Below, piece by piece: positions 5 through 54,448 of a DNA stretch of 64,000 nt; the first letter of the stretch is position 1; each line of letters begins with the position of its first letter. Both the position numbers and the translations under genes were made by a program. The DNA is taken from NCBI GenBank assembly GCA_963738405.1, contig CAVTWJ010000004.1:1-64000 (forward strand), in the 5' to 3' direction. The DNA is from a candidate division FCPU426 bacterium (GTDB lineage Bacteria > Oederibacteriota > Muellerivitia > Muellerivitales > Muellerivitaceae). The notes under the pieces were generated by a model. It was not told the DNA's origin, did no database searches, and was given only the letters and a program-made list of their open reading frames with translations.

Positions 5-41
5 CCTGCACATGGCCCTCCCAAAAAGGATGGTGTGCAAC
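5..41 (+). repeat. 37-bp direct repeat, copy 1 (CCTGCACATGGCCCTCCCAAAAAGGATGGTGTGCAAC)
   Basis: Identical to copies at 777-813 and 1193-1229; imperfect dyad TGCACA..CCT / AGG..TGTGCA. Confidence 0.97.
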
Positions 42-2079: not shown

Positions 2080-2107
2080 TGTCCACGACGGGGACCCTTC
2101 GTGGACA
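2080..2107 (+). repeat. 28-bp palindromic site
   Basis: TGTCCACGACG GGGACC CTTCGTGGACA. Confidence 0.92.
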
Positions 2108-2222
2108 AAGCAAAATGGATAATGGCAGCCTGACCTCAATGTCCAATAACGATAAGGTAACTTTGCCAGCTGTGTAAGCCGAGTAGATAAAAAAAGTTGA
2201 TAGAATTCAATCGAGGCTGGAA

Positions 2223-3539
2223 ATGGAATCCCCGCAGACAAACGCGCATCCGAAAGCGCTCCTGTTTTCGGTCAGAACGCCCAAGGTAACTGATGCCGAA
2301 GCGATGGAATCGATGATCGAGCTCGAACGGCTGGTGACGACCTTGGGTTACGAGGTGACCGGAACTATGTCCCAGCGGCAACCCAGCACATCAGGGGTCA
2401 CGGTGGTGGGTGAGGGAAAACTGATGGAACTCGCCCAACTCACCGGCGGAAAGGGCCGCCGGGATAGGATCAAGGGGAACACCGAAGCGCCGCAACCGGC
2501 GCCAGTCCCGGCCTCGGCTCCCGAAGGACCCGCGATGGTCGCTTTTGACTGCGATTTGAGCCCGTCCCAGATACGGAACGTCGAAGAAGCTTTGGGAGTT
2601 CCGGTGCTTGATCGCACTGGCGTGATCATCGAAATCTTCAACCGGCACGCGAAGACCCGGGCGGCTCGTCTCCAGGTCGATATCGCGCGCCAAACTTATC
2701 AGGCTCCCCGTCTCAGGGATACGGGGGTAGGGAAGGAACGCCAGTCTGGCCGAGGATCCGGGGAAACAATCATCGAGACGGAAAAGCGCAAAGTCCGCGA
2801 CCGTCTGGCTGAGCTGAGGCACGAGTTAGAAGCGGTTCAAAGAGAAGAGGAGCATCGCCGGTTAAAACGCGCGGAACTGCTCGGCGCCGCGCTGGTGGGC
2901 TACACGAATGCCGGAAAATCATCCCTCATGCGGGCGCTGACCGGCAGCGACGTCCTGGTGGAGGACAAACTCTTCGCGACCTTGGATACGACCATACGCG
3001 CCCTACAACCAGAGACCCAGCCGAGAATCCTGATCACCGATACGGTGGGTTTTATCCACAAGCTTCCACACGATCTGGTGGCGTCCTTCCGCTCCACGCT
3101 GGATGAGGCCCGCGGCGCCGCCCTGCTGCTTTACGTGGTGGACGCCGCTGACCGCAACTTTCGTTCCCAGCTCGCGGTGGTTCGGGAAGTCTTGGGTGAG
3201 ATTGGCGCCGACAAAACCCCCTATCTTCTCGTTCTCAATAAGGCCGACTGCTTGAGCGAATGGCAGAAGCGGGTTCTCGGGGCGGAGTATCCAGACGCGG
3301 TTTTAACCTCGACCCGCAGTCCCGAGGACATGCGGGTCGTCAGTGAACGCATTATTCATTTTTTCGAGAAAGACATGATCGAAAAGGAGATTCTCGTTCC
3401 CTATAAAGCCCAAGGTGTCATCAGCGAAATGCGTTTGAATATGAAAATCTTGAAGGAGAGCTTTTCCGAAGATGGCGTTCTACTTCTTGTTCGCGCTCGT
3501 CCGATTGACCTTCAGCGCTTGAGTAAAATGATGAAGTAG
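2223..3539 (+). CDS. hflX: GTPase HflX
   Basis: GYTNAGKS, EDKLFATLD, DTVGFI and NKAD motifs. Confidence 0.95.
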   Translation: MESPQTNAHPKALLFSVRTPKVTDAEAMESMIELERLVTTLGYEVTGTMSQRQPSTSGVTVVGEGKLMELAQLTGGKGRRDRIKGNTEAPQPAPVPASAPEGPAMVAFDCDLSPSQIRNVEEALGVPVLDRTGVIIEIFNRHAKTRAARLQVDIARQTYQAPRLRDTGVGKERQSGRGSGETIIETEKRKVRDRLAELRHELEAVQREEEHRRLKRAELLGAALVGYTNAGKSSLMRALTGSDVLVEDKLFATLDTTIRALQPETQPRILITDTVGFIHKLPHDLVASFRSTLDEARGAALLLYVVDAADRNFRSQLAVVREVLGEIGADKTPYLLVLNKADCLSEWQKRVLGAEYPDAVLTSTRSPEDMRVVSERIIHFFEKDMIEKEILVPYKAQGVISEMRLNMKILKESFSEDGVLLLVRARPIDLQRLSKMMK

Positions 3540-3619
3540 TGTCCCGCGGTGTGTGCCGCCCTTCAATTTAAAATAAAGAGTTGGGGAGAGCGGACAATTG
3601 TATTGATCCGCTTTCGGTT

Positions 3620-14541: not shown

Positions 14542-14579
14542 TCCGCAAGAGCCGGGGGCCGATTCCTTTTTTACCGGTG

Positions 14580-14643
14580 CTTCGGCGCCCCCTGAATAGA
14601 TTCCCCTCGTTGAGAGCTTGGCTTAAAATTGAGTCATGAGCCC
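14580..14643 (+). repeat. about 65-bp imperfect direct repeat, copy 2
   Basis: Matches 9175-9239; includes the methyltransferase start codons. Confidence 0.85.
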
Positions 14644-15385
14644 TAAACGTTCCTTGGACTACTGGATTAGCGAATGGGACCGGATGCAGGAATACTACAT
14701 TCCTGACCGCAGGGCGAGGTTCCAGACCCTCCTGTCCATCGTCCGATCCAGAAACCCAAAACCCAGGGCCATCCTTGATCTGGGGTGCGGCACCGGAACC
14801 ATCATGTTCGAATGCTTGTCGGCTTTTCCCTCCGCGAGGGTGGTCGGCGTGGACTATGACCCGACCCTTCTTTCCTTGGCCCGGGAAAGACTGGGCGGTT
14901 ATTCGGCCCGAATGCAATTAATCCAGGTGGATGCGCGCCAAAAAGGCTGGATCGGGGGACTGGCGGGTGATTTTGACGCGGTGCTATCGGCCACGGCCCT
15001 CCATTGGCTCAGCGCGGGGGAACTTTCCCAACTTTATCAGCAGGTTTTTTCCCTGCTCCAGTCCGGCGGCATCTTCTTGAACGCGGACCATGCCGCCAGC
15101 CCCGACGCGGGGGTTCAGAAATACTGGAAGGATCAAATGCAAACCCTTAAGTCCCGCCCTGAGGAGGGGAAGGAACCCTGGGCCTCCTTTTGGAAAGAAT
15201 ATTTGGGGGAACTAGGCGGGGAAGCCCAAAAGCGTTGGGAGAAACTCCAGGCCTCGCGCCAGGGAGTGGAAGGCGGCATGCCGTTGGATTGGCATTTCGA
15301 CCGGTTAAAGGAAGCGGGTTTCCGGGAGGTCGAATGTTTTTACCGTTTCTACGCTGACGCCATTTATGGGGGTATCAAGGCATAA
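14636..15385 (+). CDS. class I SAM-dependent methyltransferase
   Basis: ILDLGCGTG, VVGVD, FDAVLSATALHW, GGIFLNAD. Confidence 0.9.
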   Translation: MSPKRSLDYWISEWDRMQEYYIPDRRARFQTLLSIVRSRNPKPRAILDLGCGTGTIMFECLSAFPSARVVGVDYDPTLLSLARERLGGYSARMQLIQVDARQKGWIGGLAGDFDAVLSATALHWLSAGELSQLYQQVFSLLQSGGIFLNADHAASPDAGVQKYWKDQMQTLKSRPEEGKEPWASFWKEYLGELGGEAQKRWEKLQASRQGVEGGMPLDWHFDRLKEAGFREVECFYRFYADAIYGGIKA

Positions 15386-15410
15386 ATCAGGCGGCGCGGC
15401 GTTGTAAACC

Positions 15411-15427
15411 TGTCCACGACGGGGGCC
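15411..15427 (+). repeat. half 28-bp site (left arm plus spacer)
   Basis: TGTCCACGACG GGGGCC; right arm absent. Confidence 0.7.
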
Positions 15428-15432
15428 CGGGC

Positions 15433-15870
15433 CTATTTGACTTTCATGCTTTCCAACAGGTCGTCATAGCCCTTTTTCAGGTTTTTCATCCCCTGGTCAA
15501 TCTCCGCCTTCAGCCGGTCCAAATCCTTTTCGGTGCTTTTTTTAACGGCCTTTAGTTGGGCATCCAAAACCTTTTCCTGGTGGTGCAAGCCGTGGATCTT
15601 AAGCCGAATGTCTTTATGGACGTCCTTTCCCAGATGGGCCGTGTTCTTGGAGAGCTTTTTTTCTTGAAGGCTGATTTGGGCCTTCAGGCCGTCCAAGTCC
15701 CTGCGGATTCTTTTTTCGTAATCCGCTTTCTTTTCCGCGACCAATTTCCCGGAGTCATTCATGGTTTTTTGGGCGTCCTGGGTTACGGTTTGGACCGCTT
15801 CTTCCGCTAAGACCGGGCCGCACCCCATCAATGCAAAACAACAAATAGCCAGAACCGTGAAAGTTTTCAT
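15433..15870 (-). CDS. exported coiled-coil protein
   Basis: Signal peptide followed by charged helical heptads; GGAGG RBS. Confidence 0.75.
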   Translation of the reverse strand: MKTFTVLAICCFALMGCGPVLAEEAVQTVTQDAQKTMNDSGKLVAEKKADYEKRIRRDLDGLKAQISLQEKKLSKNTAHLGKDVHKDIRLKIHGLHHQEKVLDAQLKAVKKSTEKDLDRLKAEIDQGMKNLKKGYDDLLESMKVK

Positions 15871-15911
15871 GAAACCCTCCTTAACTGGCGAAGGTTGAGG
15901 CTCTCCACAAT

Positions 15912-16538
15912 CTAGGATGCTTCCTTGGCCTTAACTTTAGCCTTCCCCATCATTGCCTTTTCCCTGACCGTGACCAAAAACGAGATCGACTTGAAACGGG
16001 GCTTCTCATTCAGCTTGGTGTCGGCGATGCTGAATTCCAACACTCTTATTTCCACGTCAAAGCCGGGGTAATGGATGATCCTCAGGGCGCTTCGGTCCGT
16101 GGGAATCCCGGGGCCGGGCCTGAGGGGCCGGGGGGAGAAATTATCGTCGGTCCTAAAGTCGGCGGCGGAAACTTCCCGAAGGGTGGGGACATCCTTGGTT
16201 TCCACAGGCGTCAGCAGGTCTTGGTCCGCCTCGTCTTTGGAAAAGGAAAACATATAGCCCTCAATGCCCTTTTCCCCCGACTCGGTGGTGACTTGTAAAA
16301 ACAAATCGTCCCAAACCTTGCTGTAAAACCGGGTCTCATCCCCCGCGGGGAGGGCGGGCAGGCCGTCGGCCTTATCCTCGGTGAGCACCAAATAGGTGGA
16401 AGCCACCCGGAGGGGGTCGTGGGGCCCGTTGTGGTCGAACTTTTCAATGATCCGGTTGTCGTCGTCGGCCCGGCAAACGCCCGTCAGCCCGGCGGACAGG
16501 ATCAAAACCATCACCCAACCCACGGTTATCTTTTTCAT
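15912..16538 (-). CDS. exported hypothetical protein
   Basis: MKKITVGWVMVLIL signal peptide; GGAGG RBS. Confidence 0.7.
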   Translation of the reverse strand: MKKITVGWVMVLILSAGLTGVCRADDDNRIIEKFDHNGPHDPLRVASTYLVLTEDKADGLPALPAGDETRFYSKVWDDLFLQVTTESGEKGIEGYMFSFSKDEADQDLLTPVETKDVPTLREVSAADFRTDDNFSPRPLRPGPGIPTDRSALRIIHYPGFDVEIRVLEFSIADTKLNEKPRFKSISFLVTVREKAMMGKAKVKAKEAS

Positions 16539-16614
16539 ACGCCCCTCCTTTTTCTTTTCCCGCCCCAACTTTTCCCAACAAAACCGAAACATCCTTTTTT
16601 CGGGAGGGCCCGAA

Positions 16615-19587: not shown

Positions 19588-19764
19588 ATGGAAAAATTCG
19601 TAGGTTACTTCATCGGGGTCGCCATCGCCATGGCGATCGCCCTCGGCATCGGGTGGCTCAAAGGCGGGGCAGATCTCACTAAGACCATGGGTATCTTTTT
19701 CGCGGGATGGATTGTCGGGGCGATCTCCATGTACATCAAAGCGATGATCGTCTATAAACCCTGA
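19588..19764 (+). CDS. 58-aa two-TM small protein (not in ORF track)
   Basis: AAGGAGG RBS; MEKFVGLLIGVAIAMAIALGIGWLKGGADLTKTMGIFFAGWIVGAISMYIKAMIVYKP. Confidence 0.75.
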   Translation: MEKFVGYFIGVAIAMAIALGIGWLKGGADLTKTMGIFFAGWIVGAISMYIKAMIVYKP

Positions 19765-19782
19765 CCCGGCTTCTTGGCCCTT

Positions 19783-20343
19783 TTACTCGGCCTGAAACTC
19801 TTTTGCTGTAATAACGGTTCCTTGGGTGGCGAAAACCTTTTCGGTTAAAACCCTGTGTACTTCCTCATCCGGGTCAAAACAAGCGTCCTTCACGACAACG
19901 CACTGAAAATCCAAATCGCTGGCGGCCCGGATGGTGGATAAAACGATGCCGCTAGTGGAAATTCCCATGAGCACCAAATTCTCGATGCCCTGGGCCCGCA
20001 GGATCATCTGCAGGGAATTACCGGCAAAGGCGCTGACACGGTGCTTGTAGATAACCCTTTCGCCAGTCTTGTATATAGAAGGATGGATATTCGCTGAATC
20101 CGTTCCCTTGACGAAAATTCCTCTTTCTTTAACCATCGCGAAACGCTTGTTCAAGGGGCTGATTTCGGGATAGCCCGGTTCAAACCCTATCCCTACGTGA
20201 AGGATGAAAAACCCGCCTTTTCGGGCTGTTTCCATCACTAAAGCCGCGTTGGGCAAGATATCCGTTGCCGGTGGAATAAAACCAAAGATCCCTTCTTGAA
20301 TGTCCAAAGAAAGAACAGCTGTTTTATGGGGATCGAGTTTCAT
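19783..20343 (-). CDS. isochorismatase/cysteine hydrolase family protein
   Basis: TAVLSLDIQ, KHRVSAF, GISTSGIVLST, VVKDAC. Confidence 0.88.
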   Translation of the reverse strand: MKLDPHKTAVLSLDIQEGIFGFIPPATDILPNAALVMETARKGGFFILHVGIGFEPGYPEISPLNKRFAMVKERGIFVKGTDSANIHPSIYKTGERVIYKHRVSAFAGNSLQMILRAQGIENLVLMGISTSGIVLSTIRAASDLDFQCVVVKDACFDPDEEVHRVLTEKVFATQGTVITAKEFQAE

Positions 20344-20496
20344 TTTTTTCCTCCGGATGCGGAATGTAATGGGGTGCATCATACACTTTCAAGTCGCAAA
20401 ACCCTCCAAGTCGAGAATCAACGCGATGTAAAAAAATGTGTTTAACGCAATATTTTTTTAGTCATTTCCGATAAGTTTTTCTAAAATGAACGCACT

Positions 20497-21363
20497 TTGA
20501 AAAACATAAATTTACCCACTGCAAATCAAAGGCCGCACATGGGCACCATGCCTGAGATTCTCGACGACTCCAAATACGCCAAGGGTACGGGCCTTTTTTC
20601 CGTTTACGAGAATGTCTCCTTTCCGGAAGACGTGAAAAAGCGCTGCATGGCCCTGTTGGAATTCGGCACCGAAACCCTCCTCAAAAACGACTTTATCATC
20701 CTCGATTTCGTCCCTTATCCCGGTTTGGGCCGGGTGGGGCAAGACGATGTGCTGAAGTATTCGTGGATTCTTTCCGAATCCCACCGGGTGCTGATGTATG
20801 ACCCTAAAACCAAGACCTTGATCGATGAGCTTTATACCTGCAGTCCCGAAAAGGACGGCCGCTTGATGTTTGAGGCAGCCAATCAGCGCATTGGAAAACC
20901 GGTCAAAAGCATCCTTTTGAGCGAAATTGTGAGCAAGGAAATGGCCCAGCAGGATGAGCCGGACAAGCTGTTTCATTCGGTTCAAGACGCTTCCAAGAAA
21001 TTCCGCATGGCCCCCAAAAAGAACTACTGCGTCTCCACCGTGTTTTTCGATATGTCCGATACGAAGCTGGATGAGGACAGCCTGGAAACCATGCTGACCA
21101 AGGCCTTGAACAAAGATGATCAGAAGCCGGTCATTGAATCCGCCTGCCGTTATGATCCGCAAGGCTACACCTACATCCACCAGTCCCCCAAGCATTTCGC
21201 TGGACTACACAGCTATCCCGGCACGCTGAAATCCGCTCACTTAAGCCTGATCGGAACCGGGGAAGCGGTGGTTCCGGTTTTGGAAGATATGGAAGAAGTA
21301 GTTTACAAACGCCGAAAAACCGAACCCACCATGAGCATCAAGATCGTCGCCGAAGGTTTTTAA
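20497..21363 (+). CDS. pyruvoyl-dependent S-adenosylmethionine-decarboxylase-like protein with two tandem domains
   Basis: Domain 1 has ILSESH…YTC; domain 2 has YDPQGYT…HSYP without ESH; true start may be 20539. Confidence 0.6.
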   Translation: MKNINLPTANQRPHMGTMPEILDDSKYAKGTGLFSVYENVSFPEDVKKRCMALLEFGTETLLKNDFIILDFVPYPGLGRVGQDDVLKYSWILSESHRVLMYDPKTKTLIDELYTCSPEKDGRLMFEAANQRIGKPVKSILLSEIVSKEMAQQDEPDKLFHSVQDASKKFRMAPKKNYCVSTVFFDMSDTKLDEDSLETMLTKALNKDDQKPVIESACRYDPQGYTYIHQSPKHFAGLHSYPGTLKSAHLSLIGTGEAVVPVLEDMEEVVYKRRKTEPTMSIKIVAEGF

Positions 21364-21385
21364 GAATATCTTTCAAGATTTTTTA

Positions 21386-21413
21386 CCACCACGATGCGTC
21401 CCCTTCGGGGACA
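21386..21413 (-). repeat. 28-bp site in inverted orientation
   Basis: Reverse complement reads TGTCCCCGAAG GGGACG CATCGTGGTGG. Confidence 0.65.
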
Positions 21414-21534
21414 GGCTTGCATCGCACCAAGTCACTAAGAACAGCAATAAGCCTTAAAATGTTTGAAATCCTTTTTTAAAATTAGCTTTTCTTGGTGTCT
21501 TTGTGCCTTGGTGGTGAAGCAATTAGAGGTGATT

Positions 21535-22197
21535 ATGTCGCAATGGCTTGAACATTACGGGATGTCGGTGAGTTTTTTGGCTTTGATCCTGGCCTTTGGG
21601 TCGGCCCTTTACGGCGTTCTTCTTAAAAAGAAAAAATCCGCGAAAGAAAAAAAATCCCCTTCCAAAGCCGCGCCCTATTTTATTTTGGCCGGCGTGTTAT
21701 CAGTGATCGCGATACTTTTAGCCGTTGGGACTGGTTTGGCTTTTCAAAAAATTCAAACCCTGAAAGCCAACGGCCCTTTTCCTTTCGGAAGCGGATGGGT
21801 CTTTTACGGTTATTACGACCAGGTGAAAAAAACTTTTCTAGCGGGGCCCTTTGAAAAAATCGCCGCCCGTTCCGCGAGCCCCAGGACGGATGACAACCTC
21901 CCGGGGAAGGGGGACTTGTTGGAGGTGATCGAGAGCGCGAAAGTTTATATTCCATATTTCAAGCAAGCGGGATCGGTCCACGAAATGGACTGTCCTATTG
22001 TCTATAAGTTCATGATTGAGAAAAGCGATGAAACGGGCGTGGTGCTCAAACCGGGCGCTCGATTAGTGGTGAGGGATGTGGTTTCGAAAAGTTTTACTCA
22101 AAACGGAATCAGCGTTTGGGCGCGGGTGGAAAGGTTTGAACCACCCGCGGGTGGAAGCGGCGCGCCCGCGCCTCCGGCTCCCTCGGGTAAAAAATAA
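21535..22197 (+). CDS. hypothetical membrane protein
   Basis: GAGGTG RBS; two TM segments then a soluble domain. Confidence 0.7.
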   Translation: MSQWLEHYGMSVSFLALILAFGSALYGVLLKKKKSAKEKKSPSKAAPYFILAGVLSVIAILLAVGTGLAFQKIQTLKANGPFPFGSGWVFYGYYDQVKKTFLAGPFEKIAARSASPRTDDNLPGKGDLLEVIESAKVYIPYFKQAGSVHEMDCPIVYKFMIEKSDETGVVLKPGARLVVRDVVSKSFTQNGISVWARVERFEPPAGGSGAPAPPAPSGKK

Positions 22198-46860: not shown

Positions 46861-48501
46861 ATGGAGGATATATTGGAAAAAAGCAACCTTAAGTCCCTGG
46901 CATGGCTGGATAAACTGTCCGCCTTCGCCGCTGAACGGGAAAAGAACCCCGACATCCCGCATGCCGAGCTGGCCAAGGCTCTGGGCCACGATAAGGCCAT
47001 GGTGTCTTTTCTGAGGTCCCTCAACAGTTGTTTTGATCCCGCCGCCGTGGAAAGGGTCCGGCAGGCCGCCCAAGGGCCCCACCCCTTTACCCTTTCCTTT
47101 AATAGCGCCTTGGAACTGGCCAAGCTGAACGGCAAGGTCCCCGACCTGCCGGGGGCGTTTCAGGACGCCCTGGAAGTGGTCCTTGCCCGCCATCTGGCCA
47201 AAAGGCATATCAAGAACCTGGTGGATTGGATTGCCAGCGGCAAACCGGCCAAGGATTTTGACCCTAAAAAGATCAAGGGAAATAAGCAGGATTCCGACGA
47301 ACCCGAAACCGACGAGGATGAGGGTGATGAGGAAGAACCCAAAGAGCAAACGGAAGATAAAAAGCAAAAGAAAGGGAAGGGTATCAGAAAGGCCCTTAAA
47401 CAGCTTCAAAAAGCAGGCGCTAAAGGCCTGTTTGTCGGCCTCAAATCCATGGCCGGTATGATCCACAGATACGTTCATGAAGCCGCCAAGACTACGGCGG
47501 GCTATTTTTGCCCCCTCCACTCACGTTCCAGCCGAAATCATGATTCCTCTACCAGGCCAAACCTCTTTAGGTTCCTGGGCCATTGGGGGCTCTACTGGTT
47601 TTGCGTCTTTTTTGCCTATAGCGGTATCGTCGGCCTCCTCAGTTACATCGGGCACTTTATCCCCTTCGTGGGCCCCTGGATCGACAGCGCCTGGGCGTTC
47701 CTGGTCCACCTGCTGATCCGCCTGCCCTTTTGGCTCTTGCGCCAGATATTTGCCAAGCCCTGGCTGGTTTTCATCCTTGGCGTGGCTTTGGTTTGGTGGA
47801 TTCACAAGGAATTCAAGGCCGGGTTATTGGCCACCCTTGTCGTCGCCGCCCTGTTGGCGGCGGGATGGATTTTTAGGGGAGTATGGGGGCCCTATCTGTC
47901 ATCGATTGTTTCAATTTCATCACCGAAGACCGTGGAAGTACCCGTCTCCACAAAGACCTCACAACCAGCCGTCCCAGCGGTTTCGGCGATCATTTCAAAG
48001 ATCGAGCCGAAGCTTACTGCAAAAAAGCCTAAAAAGCCCCTGTCTCCCGTAGCCTTGGCAAAGGGAGATAACTCGGGGGTCTTAGTTATTCCACCCGAGT
48101 CCCAGCCCAGGGTTCAGCAAGAATCGTTGTTCGTAAATGGCTTCATTGGTGATCTTTTCGGGCCCAGCTACCACGACCTTCAGGGTTGGATGGGGAATCT
48201 GCAAAGCGAAATCACGCCAGGCTATTGGGACCAGTTTGTTTACGAAAATTACCCGCCCGCCAAGATGCAGGAAATCCAAGACAAGAAATATTTGGTTTTC
48301 TTCAAACTCTCAGATCCCGTGAAATGCGTGAGGGCGGACGTGTTATTGGACGAGTTTCAGGTGGAAGGGGTGGTGACCACCAAAAGCGACCTGCATTATC
48401 AGGGGGAGGTGGTTTCCACCGTGCCCGTGACCGTAATTGTGGATGTGCGCCAGGGCCTGAAGGGCCTGGAAGTTTGCAAGGTTGATAGAGTCCGACCATG
48501 A
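46861..48501 (+). CDS. hypothetical protein: N-terminal HTH-like region, membrane block, C-terminal extracytoplasmic domain
   Basis: HAELAKALGHDKAMVS HTH-like segment; Trp/Phe-rich TM block around aa 235-345. Confidence 0.7.
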   Translation: MEDILEKSNLKSLAWLDKLSAFAAEREKNPDIPHAELAKALGHDKAMVSFLRSLNSCFDPAAVERVRQAAQGPHPFTLSFNSALELAKLNGKVPDLPGAFQDALEVVLARHLAKRHIKNLVDWIASGKPAKDFDPKKIKGNKQDSDEPETDEDEGDEEEPKEQTEDKKQKKGKGIRKALKQLQKAGAKGLFVGLKSMAGMIHRYVHEAAKTTAGYFCPLHSRSSRNHDSSTRPNLFRFLGHWGLYWFCVFFAYSGIVGLLSYIGHFIPFVGPWIDSAWAFLVHLLIRLPFWLLRQIFAKPWLVFILGVALVWWIHKEFKAGLLATLVVAALLAAGWIFRGVWGPYLSSIVSISSPKTVEVPVSTKTSQPAVPAVSAIISKIEPKLTAKKPKKPLSPVALAKGDNSGVLVIPPESQPRVQQESLFVNGFIGDLFGPSYHDLQGWMGNLQSEITPGYWDQFVYENYPPAKMQEIQDKKYLVFFKLSDPVKCVRADVLLDEFQVEGVVTTKSDLHYQGEVVSTVPVTVIVDVRQGLKGLEVCKVDRVRP

Positions 48502-48577: not shown

Positions 48578-48605
48578 TGTCCACGATGGGGAGCCATCGT
48601 GGACA
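48578..48605 (+). repeat. 28-bp palindromic site
   Basis: TGTCCACGATG GGGAGC CATCGTGGACA. Confidence 0.93.
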
Positions 48606-52396: not shown

Positions 52397-52434
52397 AAAA
52401 AGGCCCGTCCCTTCATTGGGACGGGCCTTTTTTT
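52397..52434. terminator. bidirectional intrinsic terminator
   Basis: AAAAAGGCCCGTCCC-ttcatt-GGGACGGGCCTTTTTTT. Confidence 0.9.
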
Positions 52435-52690: not shown

Positions 52691-52718
52691 TGTTCACGAT
52701 GGGGACCCGTCGTGGACA
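52691..52718 (+). repeat. 28-bp palindromic site
   Basis: TGTTCACGATG GGGACC CGTCGTGGACA. Confidence 0.93.
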
Positions 52719-52758
52719 GGTAACATGGATTGGGAAACATTGAAAGAGGATGTGAAGT

Positions 52759-53163
52759 TTGGCAAAAAATGAAAAAATCCAAATATTATTATTCCCTTTT
52801 CTGTTCCTTGGGTTAATGATTATTTTTCCATATATAAGTTTTGGATTTAATAAATGGCTTGGGAGAAATTTAGGGAATTTTTTATTTTTTCTACCGCAAT
52901 ATGTATTTCCATATGACGGGTATTTCAGAAGTGGCCCGTTTGATGAAACTGCCCACTTAAGTCTTCATCCGCTTGGTTTGCCAGGATGGATTGCATCGTT
53001 GATTCATTGGACGATTGTCATTTTTATTTATTATTGGCTTACTCGAAAATTATCCTTTGGAAAATCACTTCTAATGTTTTGCTTTTTGGCTATTTCATCA
53101 TTAGTAATTGTCTATTTTTCATTGGGGGTTTTTGGATGGAATTTCAGCATTGATGGACCATAA
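52759..53163 (+). CDS. AT-rich membrane protein (cassette 1)
   Basis: Three hydrophobic segments; fills the interval between two sites. Confidence 0.7.
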   Translation: MAKNEKIQILLFPFLFLGLMIIFPYISFGFNKWLGRNLGNFLFFLPQYVFPYDGYFRSGPFDETAHLSLHPLGLPGWIASLIHWTIVIFIYYWLTRKLSFGKSLLMFCFLAISSLVIVYFSLGVFGWNFSIDGP

Positions 53164-53177
53164 AAAAGGAATTCTCT

Positions 53178-53205
53178 TGTCCACGACGGGGACCCGTCGT
53201 GGACA
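53178..53205 (+). repeat. 28-bp palindromic site (consensus)
   Basis: TGTCCACGACG GGGACC CGTCGTGGACA. Confidence 0.95.
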
Positions 53206-53248
53206 AAGAAAAAAGGCGTAAAGTGTTATCGGCAATAGGAGATCGAAA

Positions 53249-53584
53249 ATGGATCGCAAAATAATCGCCGAAGTTATATTCGCATTTTTAGGAGTATGGA
53301 TGATCGCCCTCCCTTCATTCTTTTTAAAGTTCCTCGCAAAGGGGGCACAGTTTAATTATGAAAATTTAAAATCAAATTTAGATAGGATTAAAAGGGAAGG
53401 GCCGGCAAATCTGAACGAAAAATTAGCGACGAAATTTGGTCCCAACATCTTTCAAAAAATCTCGATGAATAAGGATGTTTATAAACCCCCGACGGAAACA
53501 CAAAAGTGGTTAATGAGATCATTGGGGATATTATTCGTTTGCATATCTCTTGGCGTTTTATTCAATCTGATTGGGGTTAGATGA
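53249..53584 (+). CDS. AT-rich two-TM protein (cassette 2)
   Basis: AGGAG RBS; hydrophobic termini. Confidence 0.75.
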   Translation: MDRKIIAEVIFAFLGVWMIALPSFFLKFLAKGAQFNYENLKSNLDRIKREGPANLNEKLATKFGPNIFQKISMNKDVYKPPTETQKWLMRSLGILFVCISLGVLFNLIGVR

Positions 53585-53648
53585 AACATTGTTAATTTTT
53601 CTCTCCAGTTTCTTAACCGATTTGAGGACCGTTTGGTTGAAGCTTGTT

Positions 53649-53676
53649 TGTCCACGACGGGGACCCATCGTGGACA
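53649..53676 (+). repeat. 28-bp palindromic site
   Basis: TGTCCACGACG GGGACC CATCGTGGACA. Confidence 0.95.
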
Positions 53677-53733
53677 GAAAAATAAAGTGTAAGTATTTCA
53701 TTTGGACGGTATTACGGGAAAAAGGATTAGAAT

Positions 53734-54267
53734 TTGGAAACTAAAACGGAAATAAATCCAAACGAATTTAGAACACTTTACCGTCCCCGTTTTGCTGATT
53801 GGCTCATTGCTTGTCTTTTTTTCTTAACTTTTGGTTTGGGACTTCCATCTATGTTGGTTGAAAAAAGTTTGGATGTTTGGGGAAAGAACATTTTATCTTT
53901 GGATTCGATTGAAAGGTTTTTTGGGTGCGTTGTAGTAATCGGAATGGAAATAATTTTATTGAAAGAATGTTTAAAATCTTGGCTTTCTGAAGTTAGTGTT
54001 AATTCTATGAGACTAAAATTAAAAATTCTTTCTTTTGAAAAAATAATTGAATGGAAAACTCTTCATTCTATTTCTCTTTCGCCCAATAGCTGGGGAACAG
54101 TTGATTTGTATTTGTTTTTTCCAAATAAAAAGAAAATTAGGTTTTGGTCGGCCTTTGGTCCTGCAAGTAGATTTATCTACCAAGGTATAAAAGAATTCAG
54201 ACCTGATCTGATTGATGAACTGAAAAAGCAGGGGAAAATGCATGAGTATAAAGGTGTATTTATTTAA
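53734..54267 (+). CDS. AT-rich membrane protein, possibly two TM plus a PH-like domain (cassette 3)
   Basis: Two TM segments then KIIEWKTLHSI. Confidence 0.7.
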   Translation: METKTEINPNEFRTLYRPRFADWLIACLFFLTFGLGLPSMLVEKSLDVWGKNILSLDSIERFFGCVVVIGMEIILLKECLKSWLSEVSVNSMRLKLKILSFEKIIEWKTLHSISLSPNSWGTVDLYLFFPNKKKIRFWSAFGPASRFIYQGIKEFRPDLIDELKKQGKMHEYKGVFI

Positions 54268-54282
54268 ACCAGATACTTAACC

Positions 54283-54310
54283 TGTCCACGACGGGGACCC
54301 GTCGTGGACA
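54283..54310 (+). repeat. 28-bp palindromic site (consensus)
   Basis: Exact match to 53178-53205. Confidence 0.95.
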
Positions 54311-54420
54311 GTCAGTACCACTGACTGTCTTATTCGAAAATGTTTCCCCGGAACTTTCTAGCTTTCTCAAAAAATTTTAGGGGAATGATAAACCTGTACT
54401 TACCTGGTAAAGTTACCCCC

Positions 54421-54448
54421 TGTCCGCAAAAGGAACCCGTTGTGAACA
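54421..54448 (+). repeat. degenerate 28-bp site
   Basis: TGTCCGCAAAA GGAACC CGTTGTGAACA followed by the usual AAGAAAA. Confidence 0.7.

Follow-up and report, generated by a model that had tools for sequence, protein, structure and literature searches.

Integron-like arrays of putative mobile gene cassettes bounded by a 28-bp site in a candidate division FCPU426 bacterium

The window analyzed here, the whole stretch of 64,000 nucleotides at positions 1-64000 of contig C4 in the genome of an uncultured soil bacterium of candidate division FCPU426 (the source genome, G000; a 3.18-Mb assembly of 23 contigs, 90.7% complete), carries an integron-like array in which five co-oriented copies of a 28-bp site enclose three small genes and one unit without a gene. 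Comparison with other arrays of the same genome, of its relatives and of metagenomes indicates that the cassettes are mobile units bounded by the 28-nt sites. The system is an integron in function, and every tested defining molecular feature of integrons fails in it. As a whole, the data are probably best explained by chromosomal arrays of mobile cassettes that would be exchanged at a 28-30-bp recombination site specific to the order.

The five sites lie exactly where the original prediction had placed them, all on the + strand; four are good copies and one is decayed. The consensus of the window sites, TGTCCACGAYGGGGACCC-NNNN-TGGACA, is a near-palindrome. Site 1 (52691-52718; TGTTCACGATGGGGACCCGTCGTGGACA) opens the array and is followed by cassette gene 1 (52759-53163, + strand). 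Site 2 (53178-53205), a perfect consensus 28-mer, precedes cassette gene 2 (53249-53584, + strand), and site 3 (53649-53676), with a single change from G to A in the inner right arm, precedes cassette gene 3 (53734-54267, + strand). Site 4 (54283-54310) is the same 28-mer as site 2 (TGTCCACGACGGGGACCCGTCGTGGACA), in agreement with the predicted identity of two sites. The following unstranded unit of 110 bp (54311-54420), described earlier as lacking open reading frames (ORFs), indeed holds no complete ORF of at least 40 aa, two ORFs of 47-48 aa merely overlapping it, and has a small local hairpin at its start. The decayed site 5 (54421-54448) matches the consensus at 21 of 28 positions (seven mismatches, counted by eye) and forms no stable hairpin (-1.5 kcal/mol, z 0.12); a core gene of 107 aa begins 31 nt later. 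A window search with a 26-mer at ≤3 mismatches, with 100 shuffles as control, found six site loci (including those at 2081 and 48579) against 0.00 expected from the shuffles.

The three co-oriented cargo genes are AT-rich, as had been noted from the sequence, with GC contents of 0.33, 0.37 and 0.32 against about 0.52 genome-wide. The membrane character ascribed to their products was also recovered, each having two to four hydrophobic segments: the first protein (134 aa, without known family) has three to four, the second (111 aa) has them at its N and C termini, and the third (177 aa, an ORFan) has two N-terminal ones. The genes are unrelated to one another, tblastn at E ≤ 1e-3 giving only self matches. 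Among 5.8 billion clusters searched, the 134-aa protein had three homologues (57-64% identity) and the 111-aa protein one (59%), and no homologue was found for the 177-aa protein. A weak relative of the 134-aa protein is encoded in the related genome G001 directly 3' of a copy of the second repeat family described below. The suggestion that the cargo represents orphan immunity or phage-defence genes was not borne out, as there was no Pfam or PADLOC match and no link to Rhs toxins was seen; a defence or immunity role of the window cargo is neither supported nor excluded. That the window cassettes accumulated recently is plausible.

Genome-wide, with up to five mismatches allowed, 46 site loci were counted in the source genome, lying in at least eight co-oriented clusters plus some solitary copies. 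Arrays are present on contigs C2, C4, C6, C11, C12, C16 and C23, the last with two. Each begins after an ordinary co-oriented gene (at least eight loci), and within each array all sites are direct repeats. In 17 array regions, nine of the source genome and eight of the relatives G001, G004 and G018, the median distance from stop codon to site was 20 nt (101 sites with an upstream ORF on the + strand) and that from site to next start codon 48 nt. The 81 inter-site units were 0.45-2.4 kb long (median 735 bp) with a median GC content of 0.43, and their largest ORF was co-oriented with the site in 72, antisense in four and absent in five. The cargo of the source genome and its relatives includes small AT-rich proteins without known family, toxin-antitoxin systems (PIN/VapC, PemK, DUF433-DUF5615, TacA with a GNAT toxin, and BrnT/BrnA) and enzymes (GNAT, HAD and LOG). 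Nearly all of the approximately 46 copies of the source genome stand beside foreign AT-rich or toxin-antitoxin genes, and not across core intergenic regions.

The core 17-mer of the site was present in 20 of the 24 other genomes of the same taxonomic family (f1) and in the single genome of the sister family (f2), and in none of the 15 genomes from eight other families of the phylum. It is identical across at least 15 genera, and a reversed-pattern control gave essentially no matches. Relaxed matching found arrays in most family genomes, and three (G019, G010 and G022) had no site at ≤3 mismatches. The richest genome, G021 (99% complete), contained 56 exact 17-mers. Exact site matches were also found in public records of metagenome-assembled genomes and in at least 152 metagenome stretches, and viral contigs gave no site matches. 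A hand tally showed a site within 200 nt of a contig end in 24 of 58 metagenome contigs; these were mostly short contigs and nothing firm is drawn from the number.

Turnover of the arrays was seen in several comparisons. A Phd/VapC cassette on contig C6 of the source genome is 99.2% identical over 858 bp to one with different neighbours in G004, and the homology starts and stops at the outer edges of the bounding sites. The two genomes belong to different genera with core proteins only 52-75% identical. A metagenome contig holds a third copy (91.6%), again between sites. When high-scoring segment pairs (≥90% identity, ≥250 bp) between different sequences were examined, 24 of 55 internal ends fell at sites in both partners, and merely 5% of bases lie that near a site; some of the coinciding ends are group II intron ends. 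Two metagenome strains with flanks 98.8% identical differ in the content between them, one having a single 470-aa cassette and the other a 111-aa AT-rich cassette together with a VapBC cassette. Of 22 loci with both hemB and hemL (21 relatives and the source genome), 12 have the two genes at a distance of 0-48 bp; in the source genome a 251-aa gene (GC 0.36) with a site on either side separates them. The window array was not invariant either: none of the 14 relatives examined had it at the orthologous ogg locus. Homologous cassettes occur between sites in other genomes with other neighbours. An ancestral landing pad was rejected, no site being present at hemB-hemL in 26 relatives and the decayed fifth site having no counterpart in 10 relatives.

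Within the source genome, two units occur in more than one array, one of them hflX-like (94%) and the other a PemK toxin-antitoxin unit (85%). The homology of the hflX unit ends 30-65 nt short of the sites, so that duplications are not always clean. In the window this unit follows the site at 2080-2107 (+ strand), which closes a composite array at the window start, and the duplicate is on contig C11. The hflX-like GTPase gene is complete in both places (438 aa, GC 0.57-0.58; window 2171-3558 and C11:81948-83335), and since a 28-nt site stands on each side of the C11 copy, a core-like gene can be turned into a cassette. As a separate observation, the hemB-hemL interval is an insertion hotspot in relatives, at least five unrelated small genes having been inserted in different genera without the 28-nt site (loci L006-L009, L017, L019 and L024); in G017 the inserted gene is GxxExxY-like and has inverted repeats of its own on both sides.

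The position of the exchange was mapped by comparing homologous cassettes with different neighbours in eight cassette families. In the three youngest pairs (bodies 100%, 99.6% and 90% identical) the cassette keeps the right arm of its upstream site, which is identical in two pairs and one base off in the third; the downstream site has a different right arm in every one of the eight families. The left arms are too uniform to inform on the crossover. This behaviour of the arms places the exchange in or near the site centre. A rare left-arm variant, GGC beside the centre, moves with the downstream cassette in three contexts, and because of this the exact crossover point is not fixed by the comparison.

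The architecture of the site was described from 175 distinct copies, selected by a pattern that fixed all positions except the four inner bases of the right arm, and conservation outside these four is thus partly by construction. The left arm, TTGTCCACGAY, is nearly invariant. The centre of 8 bp (GGGGACCC), of which the middle GA confers polarity, is almost so. The right arm, NNNN-TGGACAA, is looser, with its four inner bases reading GTCG in 53 copies, ATCG in 40, TTCG in 15, GGAT in 12 and GCAT in nine. In about one third of the copies the stem is opened by the right arm, as with GGAT or GCAT. The folding energy of good copies is -17.8 kcal/mol (z -6.3), and that of the other strand -17.5 kcal/mol (z -7.5). 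Positions 9 and 18, which face each other, showed no covariation (Fisher p 0.27) and are mismatched in 58 of the 175 copies; the three pairs next to them are mismatched in 45-58. These alignments favour a protein that recognizes the sequence over selection for hairpin formation. The geometry is compatible with reading the site as an 11-8-11 duplex core with a variable inner right arm; an 11-8-11 core is found in the sites of tyrosine recombinases, for instance loxP, FRT and dif. The A-rich tract reported after the right arm was recovered in this larger set, positions +4 to +7 being 51-60% A.

The absence of an integrase from the integron-like array held in the family genomes searched. Tested against the integron integrase model TIGR02249 of NCBIfam (IntI, including its IntI-specific extra domain; cut-off 265 bits), the source genome gave a best score of 43.4 bits, and none of the 31 family genomes reached the cut-off (best 84.5 bits). 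The sites are not attC either, as had been foreseen: they are 28-30 nt long, lack attC core sites (no GTTRRRY), have a sequence conserved across genera and match no Rfam family. The arrays occupy at least eight loci, and a single platform with attI and a Pc promoter beside intI was not found. Of the traits of integrons, co-oriented cassette arrays moving as units were found.

Several other identities were considered and rejected. An A-rich and not a T-rich tract follows the sites, which argues against an intrinsic terminator, and the terminator scan flagged only 52397-52432 (+ strand), the ordinary intrinsic terminator of the upstream 911-aa gene, outside the cassette system. A known RNA family was rejected by the negative Rfam search. 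The repetitive extragenic palindromic (REP)/RAYT type was rejected with the three Y1 genes of the source genome, all flanked by a different palindrome, and Y1 (HUH) genes were not found in the site-richest genome G021 or in G020. A serine recombinase, suggested by the 2-nt asymmetric centre, was rejected with no PF00239 match in the source genome, and so was Cas1, the single gene of which (C23:67309-68103) lies far from any array. The site was also rejected as the chromosomal dif, the three genomes named above being without it at ≤3 mismatches and G019 also with relaxed arms.

The candidate for the enzyme is a Xer-like tyrosine recombinase of 345 aa (C12:40126-41163). It scored 157 bits with the XerC model (cut-off 335) and 155 bits with the XerD model (cut-off 330), below both, and its best solved relatives are XerC-like and XerD proteins; the R...HxxR...H...Y motifs were recognized by eye. 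One orthologue per genome, 52-73% identical, was found in 23 of the 24 f1 genomes and in the f2 genome. Of the 15 genomes from other families, 12 had only 26-35% matches, often two per genome, as expected for XerC plus XerD, and the other three had no match at E ≤ 1e-20. The order appears to have a single divergent Xer-like recombinase in place of the XerC/XerD pair. The range of the site (f1 20/24, f2 1/1, others 0/15) parallels that of the protein, which would be the best candidate and is the only one with a matching distribution. Elsewhere in the source genome, three to four adjacent tyrosine recombinase genes lie at a contig end (C22:214538-217656); their Ala/Arg/Gly-rich products suggest a high-GC insert, and the cluster is probably a foreign recombinase-trio element or a binning contaminant.

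In the mechanism proposed, one cassette would comprise one gene or toxin-antitoxin pair and a 28-30-bp site about 20 nt past the stop codon. Recombination in or beside the centre would account for gain, loss and exchange of cassettes, and each crossover would leave the left arm attached to the unit upstream and the right arm to the unit downstream. Since all sites are direct repeats with a common centre, any two could delete the intervening DNA as a circle, and any circle could enter any site. The arrays would in this way work like integrons without a fixed entry point, and the three ORFan membrane proteins of the window would be stored accessory genes. The enzyme might act in trans, and the divergent Xer-like recombinase on a duplex 11-8-11 site is put forward tentatively. 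Slightly more doubtful is the wider proposal that the integron principle was invented independently, the single housekeeping Xer of the order running genome-wide exchange through dif-sized sites with one centre. If this were true, any intergenic site could become an array and cassettes could flow freely between genera.

A number of observations weigh against a Xer-type exchange at a duplex core. Conservation of the site is lowest in the inner right arm, beside the supposed crossover region, and this is unusual for Xer-type cores. Six copies (source genome C12:86328 and C23:104817; L050:10222; L056:4326, 5892 and 6819) hold a conserved 41-nt hairpin exactly between GACGGG and CCC, and such a centre insert would break a duplex 11-8-11 core and not a folded site. 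No recombinase is linked to the arrays by position: none recurred among 328 ORFs on 61 non-redundant metagenome loci with sites, where the largest cross-locus ORF cluster had four cargo-like members, and the arrays of relatives held only introns, insertion sequence (IS) elements and in one case a Y1 gene. Nor does a site stand next to the Xer-like gene, and no palindrome adjoins that gene in the source genome. The matching ranges of protein and site are a single clade-level coincidence that any order-specific gene would show. In G019 (97% complete) the Xer-like gene is present and no site was found even with relaxed arms, so that the site is not the obligatory dif of that protein. Finally, 16 of about 19 loci, as read from a per-site table, have their sites oriented with the GC skew, which weakly hints at a single-strand mechanism; with a gene-strand bias of 67%, a binomial test by hand was not significant (p ~0.08). 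The 41-nt insert itself resembles a miniature insert with its own arms.

Some of these points would be accommodated if the cassette biology were the same and the site acted as a folded single strand, like attC or the ends of IS200/IS605 elements, the hairpin being extruded on the lagging-strand template and cut by an unrecognized enzyme or by the Xer-like protein acting in the manner of IntI. This reading, which we consider unlikely, gains from the strong hairpin on either strand, from the long variants that retain the arms and carry the 41-nt hairpin at the tip, like the variable top of attC, and from the top strand being the G-rich strand at the 16 loci mentioned. It also agrees with the group II introns that insert in or just after the site in its orientation; group II introns without an endonuclease seek stem-loops in single-stranded DNA. 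Against it stand the mismatches at positions 9/18 and at the next three pairs, the stem pairing not being kept by covariation, and the right arms that open the stem in about one third of the copies. A 13-bp stem gives room for one recombinase monomer, and attC provides for two. Y1 (HUH) genes were not found in G021 or G020 and are flanked by the other palindrome in the source genome, and the orientation bias is not significant against the bias of gene strands.

A dedicated recombinase might also be dispensed with altogether, if the repeat were a selfish or regulatory palindrome (REP-like, or an element of RNA 3' ends) and the swaps came from homologous recombination, the 28-30-bp repeats serving as portable homology after DNA uptake. 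The lack of a recombinase linked to the arrays and the REP-like placement of sites at gene 3' ends agree with this, and RecA also yields crossovers inside identical repeats. It nevertheless seems quite improbable: the 17 bases identical in at least 15 genera argue for protein recognition, and homology alone would not keep the asymmetric conservation. The sites were not flagged as terminators and the real one at 52397-52432 was, no Rfam family matched, and there are just about 46 copies, keeping the company of foreign genes noted above. Homology of 28-30 bp is moreover at the lower limit for RecA. Hardly credible is a clustered regularly interspaced short palindromic repeat (CRISPR)-like array with kilobase blocks as 'spacers'. 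It was considered since the repeats, palindromic and 28 nt long, have a length typical of CRISPR repeats, since a second repeat family shares arrays with the site, and since the source genome has one Cas1 gene. The units, however, measure 0.45-2.4 kb and consist of complete genes that have start and stop codons of their own, the Cas1 gene is not near any array, and identical cassettes recur between sites in other genomes. Cassette exchange at an order-specific recombination site is retained as the preferred explanation.

Other mobile elements occur at the sites. Reverse transcriptase (RT) genes of group II introns lie within or just after sites and are always co-oriented with them. In G001, four copies of a 529-aa RT gene each begin 236 nt past a site, and one array of this genome holds three group II intron copies; in G004, one intron splits a site. 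The introns, with RT/maturases of 529 or 436 aa, were located at L049:9996-12002, 14565-16571 and 19665-21671, L055 (G001 C3) and L053:6546-8590 (G004). An IS110-family gene lies 70 nt from a site. Like attC and dif sites, the 28-nt site serves other mobile elements as a target.

A second repeat family of 36 nt also brackets genes and has 13 copies in the source genome with 0-1 mismatch, located at window 6-41, 778-813 and 1194-1229, C12:144389-155822 (eight copies) and C23:2073-3952 (two copies). Repeats of the two families stand in the same array at the window start and again on C23, where a 36-nt copy is about 40 nt from a 28-nt site; two Y1-transposase/DnaA_C genes lie inside the C12 array of the 36-nt family. 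Between the 36-nt repeats and the hflX-like unit of the window, a diverged 28-nt site with a variant right arm (1584-1611, + strand) precedes a 140-aa gene of glyoxalase fold.

The solitary window site (48578-48605, + strand) lies 76 nt past the stop codon of a gene for a ParB-like membrane protein (46861-48501). Membrane-anchored ParB-like genes are found just upstream of sites and co-oriented with them more often than chance would give; paralogues were located at C5:701-2242, C23:8200-8598 and C6:8856-9287 of the source genome and on C64 of G018. A site follows within 3 kb downstream at three to four of about 11 ParB-like loci in the source genome and at one in G018. The protein was rejected as an array head, since the site-rich genomes G008 (29 sites) and G020 (22 sites) have no homologue at E ≤ 1e-8 and none of six loci in G014 is near a site.

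Among known systems, integrons, of which IntI and attC are the defining parts, are the textbook route for stockpiling and shuffling single genes; where attC sites cluster with no integrase, the term CALIN is used. The present arrays resemble sedentary chromosomal integrons and CALINs in their rows of co-oriented single-gene cassettes with a palindromic site just past the gene, in cargo of ORFans, toxin-antitoxin systems and GNAT acetyltransferases, in cassettes common to different genera, and in the group II introns and IS110-family elements at the sites. The attC sites are 57-141 nt long, with R''-L''...L'-R' boxes, a GTTRRRY core, a conserved fold and a variable sequence. Here, in contrast, the site is of 28-30 nt and its sequence is conserved, no IntI was detected in the 31 genomes, the GTTRRRY core and a head with attI and Pc are lacking, and at least eight arrays per genome lie between core genes such as hemB and hemL.

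REP/RAYT elements and the ends of IS200/IS605 are likewise short extragenic palindromes at gene 3' ends, present in tens of copies and specific to lineages. They differ in that the Y1 genes of the source genome carry another palindrome and none was found in the site-richest genome, and in that the sites here lie on either side of foreign genes instead of being dispersed through the DNA between core genes. Integrative mobile elements exploiting Xer (IMEXs), such as the CTX phage and the gonococcal island, have no integrase of their own, are bounded by direct repeats of a dif-like site and use the host Xer. The absence of an integrase and the direct repeats of a dif-like site are shared with the present arrays, but IMEXs are whole phages or islands at the single dif of the terminus, whereas single-gene units at many loci were found here.

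Compared on site size and on a host enzyme acting in trans, the latter presumed for the present arrays, the dif modules of Acinetobacter would be the closest known system. These modules are bounded by pdif sites and use the host XerC/XerD in trans (PMC13141974, PMC12907356). As presented there, they have 28-bp sites of two recombinase-binding arms around a short centre, a geometry that the present site would fit. Like the present arrays, they have modules of one or a few genes including toxin-antitoxin pairs, and multi-module islands that are also chromosomal, and their sites are targeted by insertion sequences. In PMC13141974, the sites alternate in orientation (C and D modules) and varied 6-bp spacers limit their partners, whereas all sites here are direct repeats with one invariant 8-bp centre. 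The arms are also unlike the XerC/XerD arms printed in that source. Acinetobacter has both XerC and XerD, against one Xer-like protein in this lineage.

No description of such arrays was found in the literature searched, which was covered mostly at the level of abstracts. In relation to that literature, the arrays apparently represent a new and well-bounded cassette system, mobile as judged by genome comparison and with a mechanism that would follow the scheme above. An integron-like outcome (arrays, toxin-antitoxin ballast, ORFans and transfer between genera) is attained with a 28-bp site, without IntI and without a fixed platform. This means that entire pools of cassettes in uncultured soil phyla escape integron surveys that rely on models of IntI and attC. 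Being short and well defined, the site lends itself to direct testing in E. coli. If a host Xer-like enzyme were to act on it, the system would link dimer resolution, dif modules and integrons, and would offer a living model for the origin of integrons from Xer systems. Set beside the known systems, the arrays are a variant of the principle common to integrons and dif modules.

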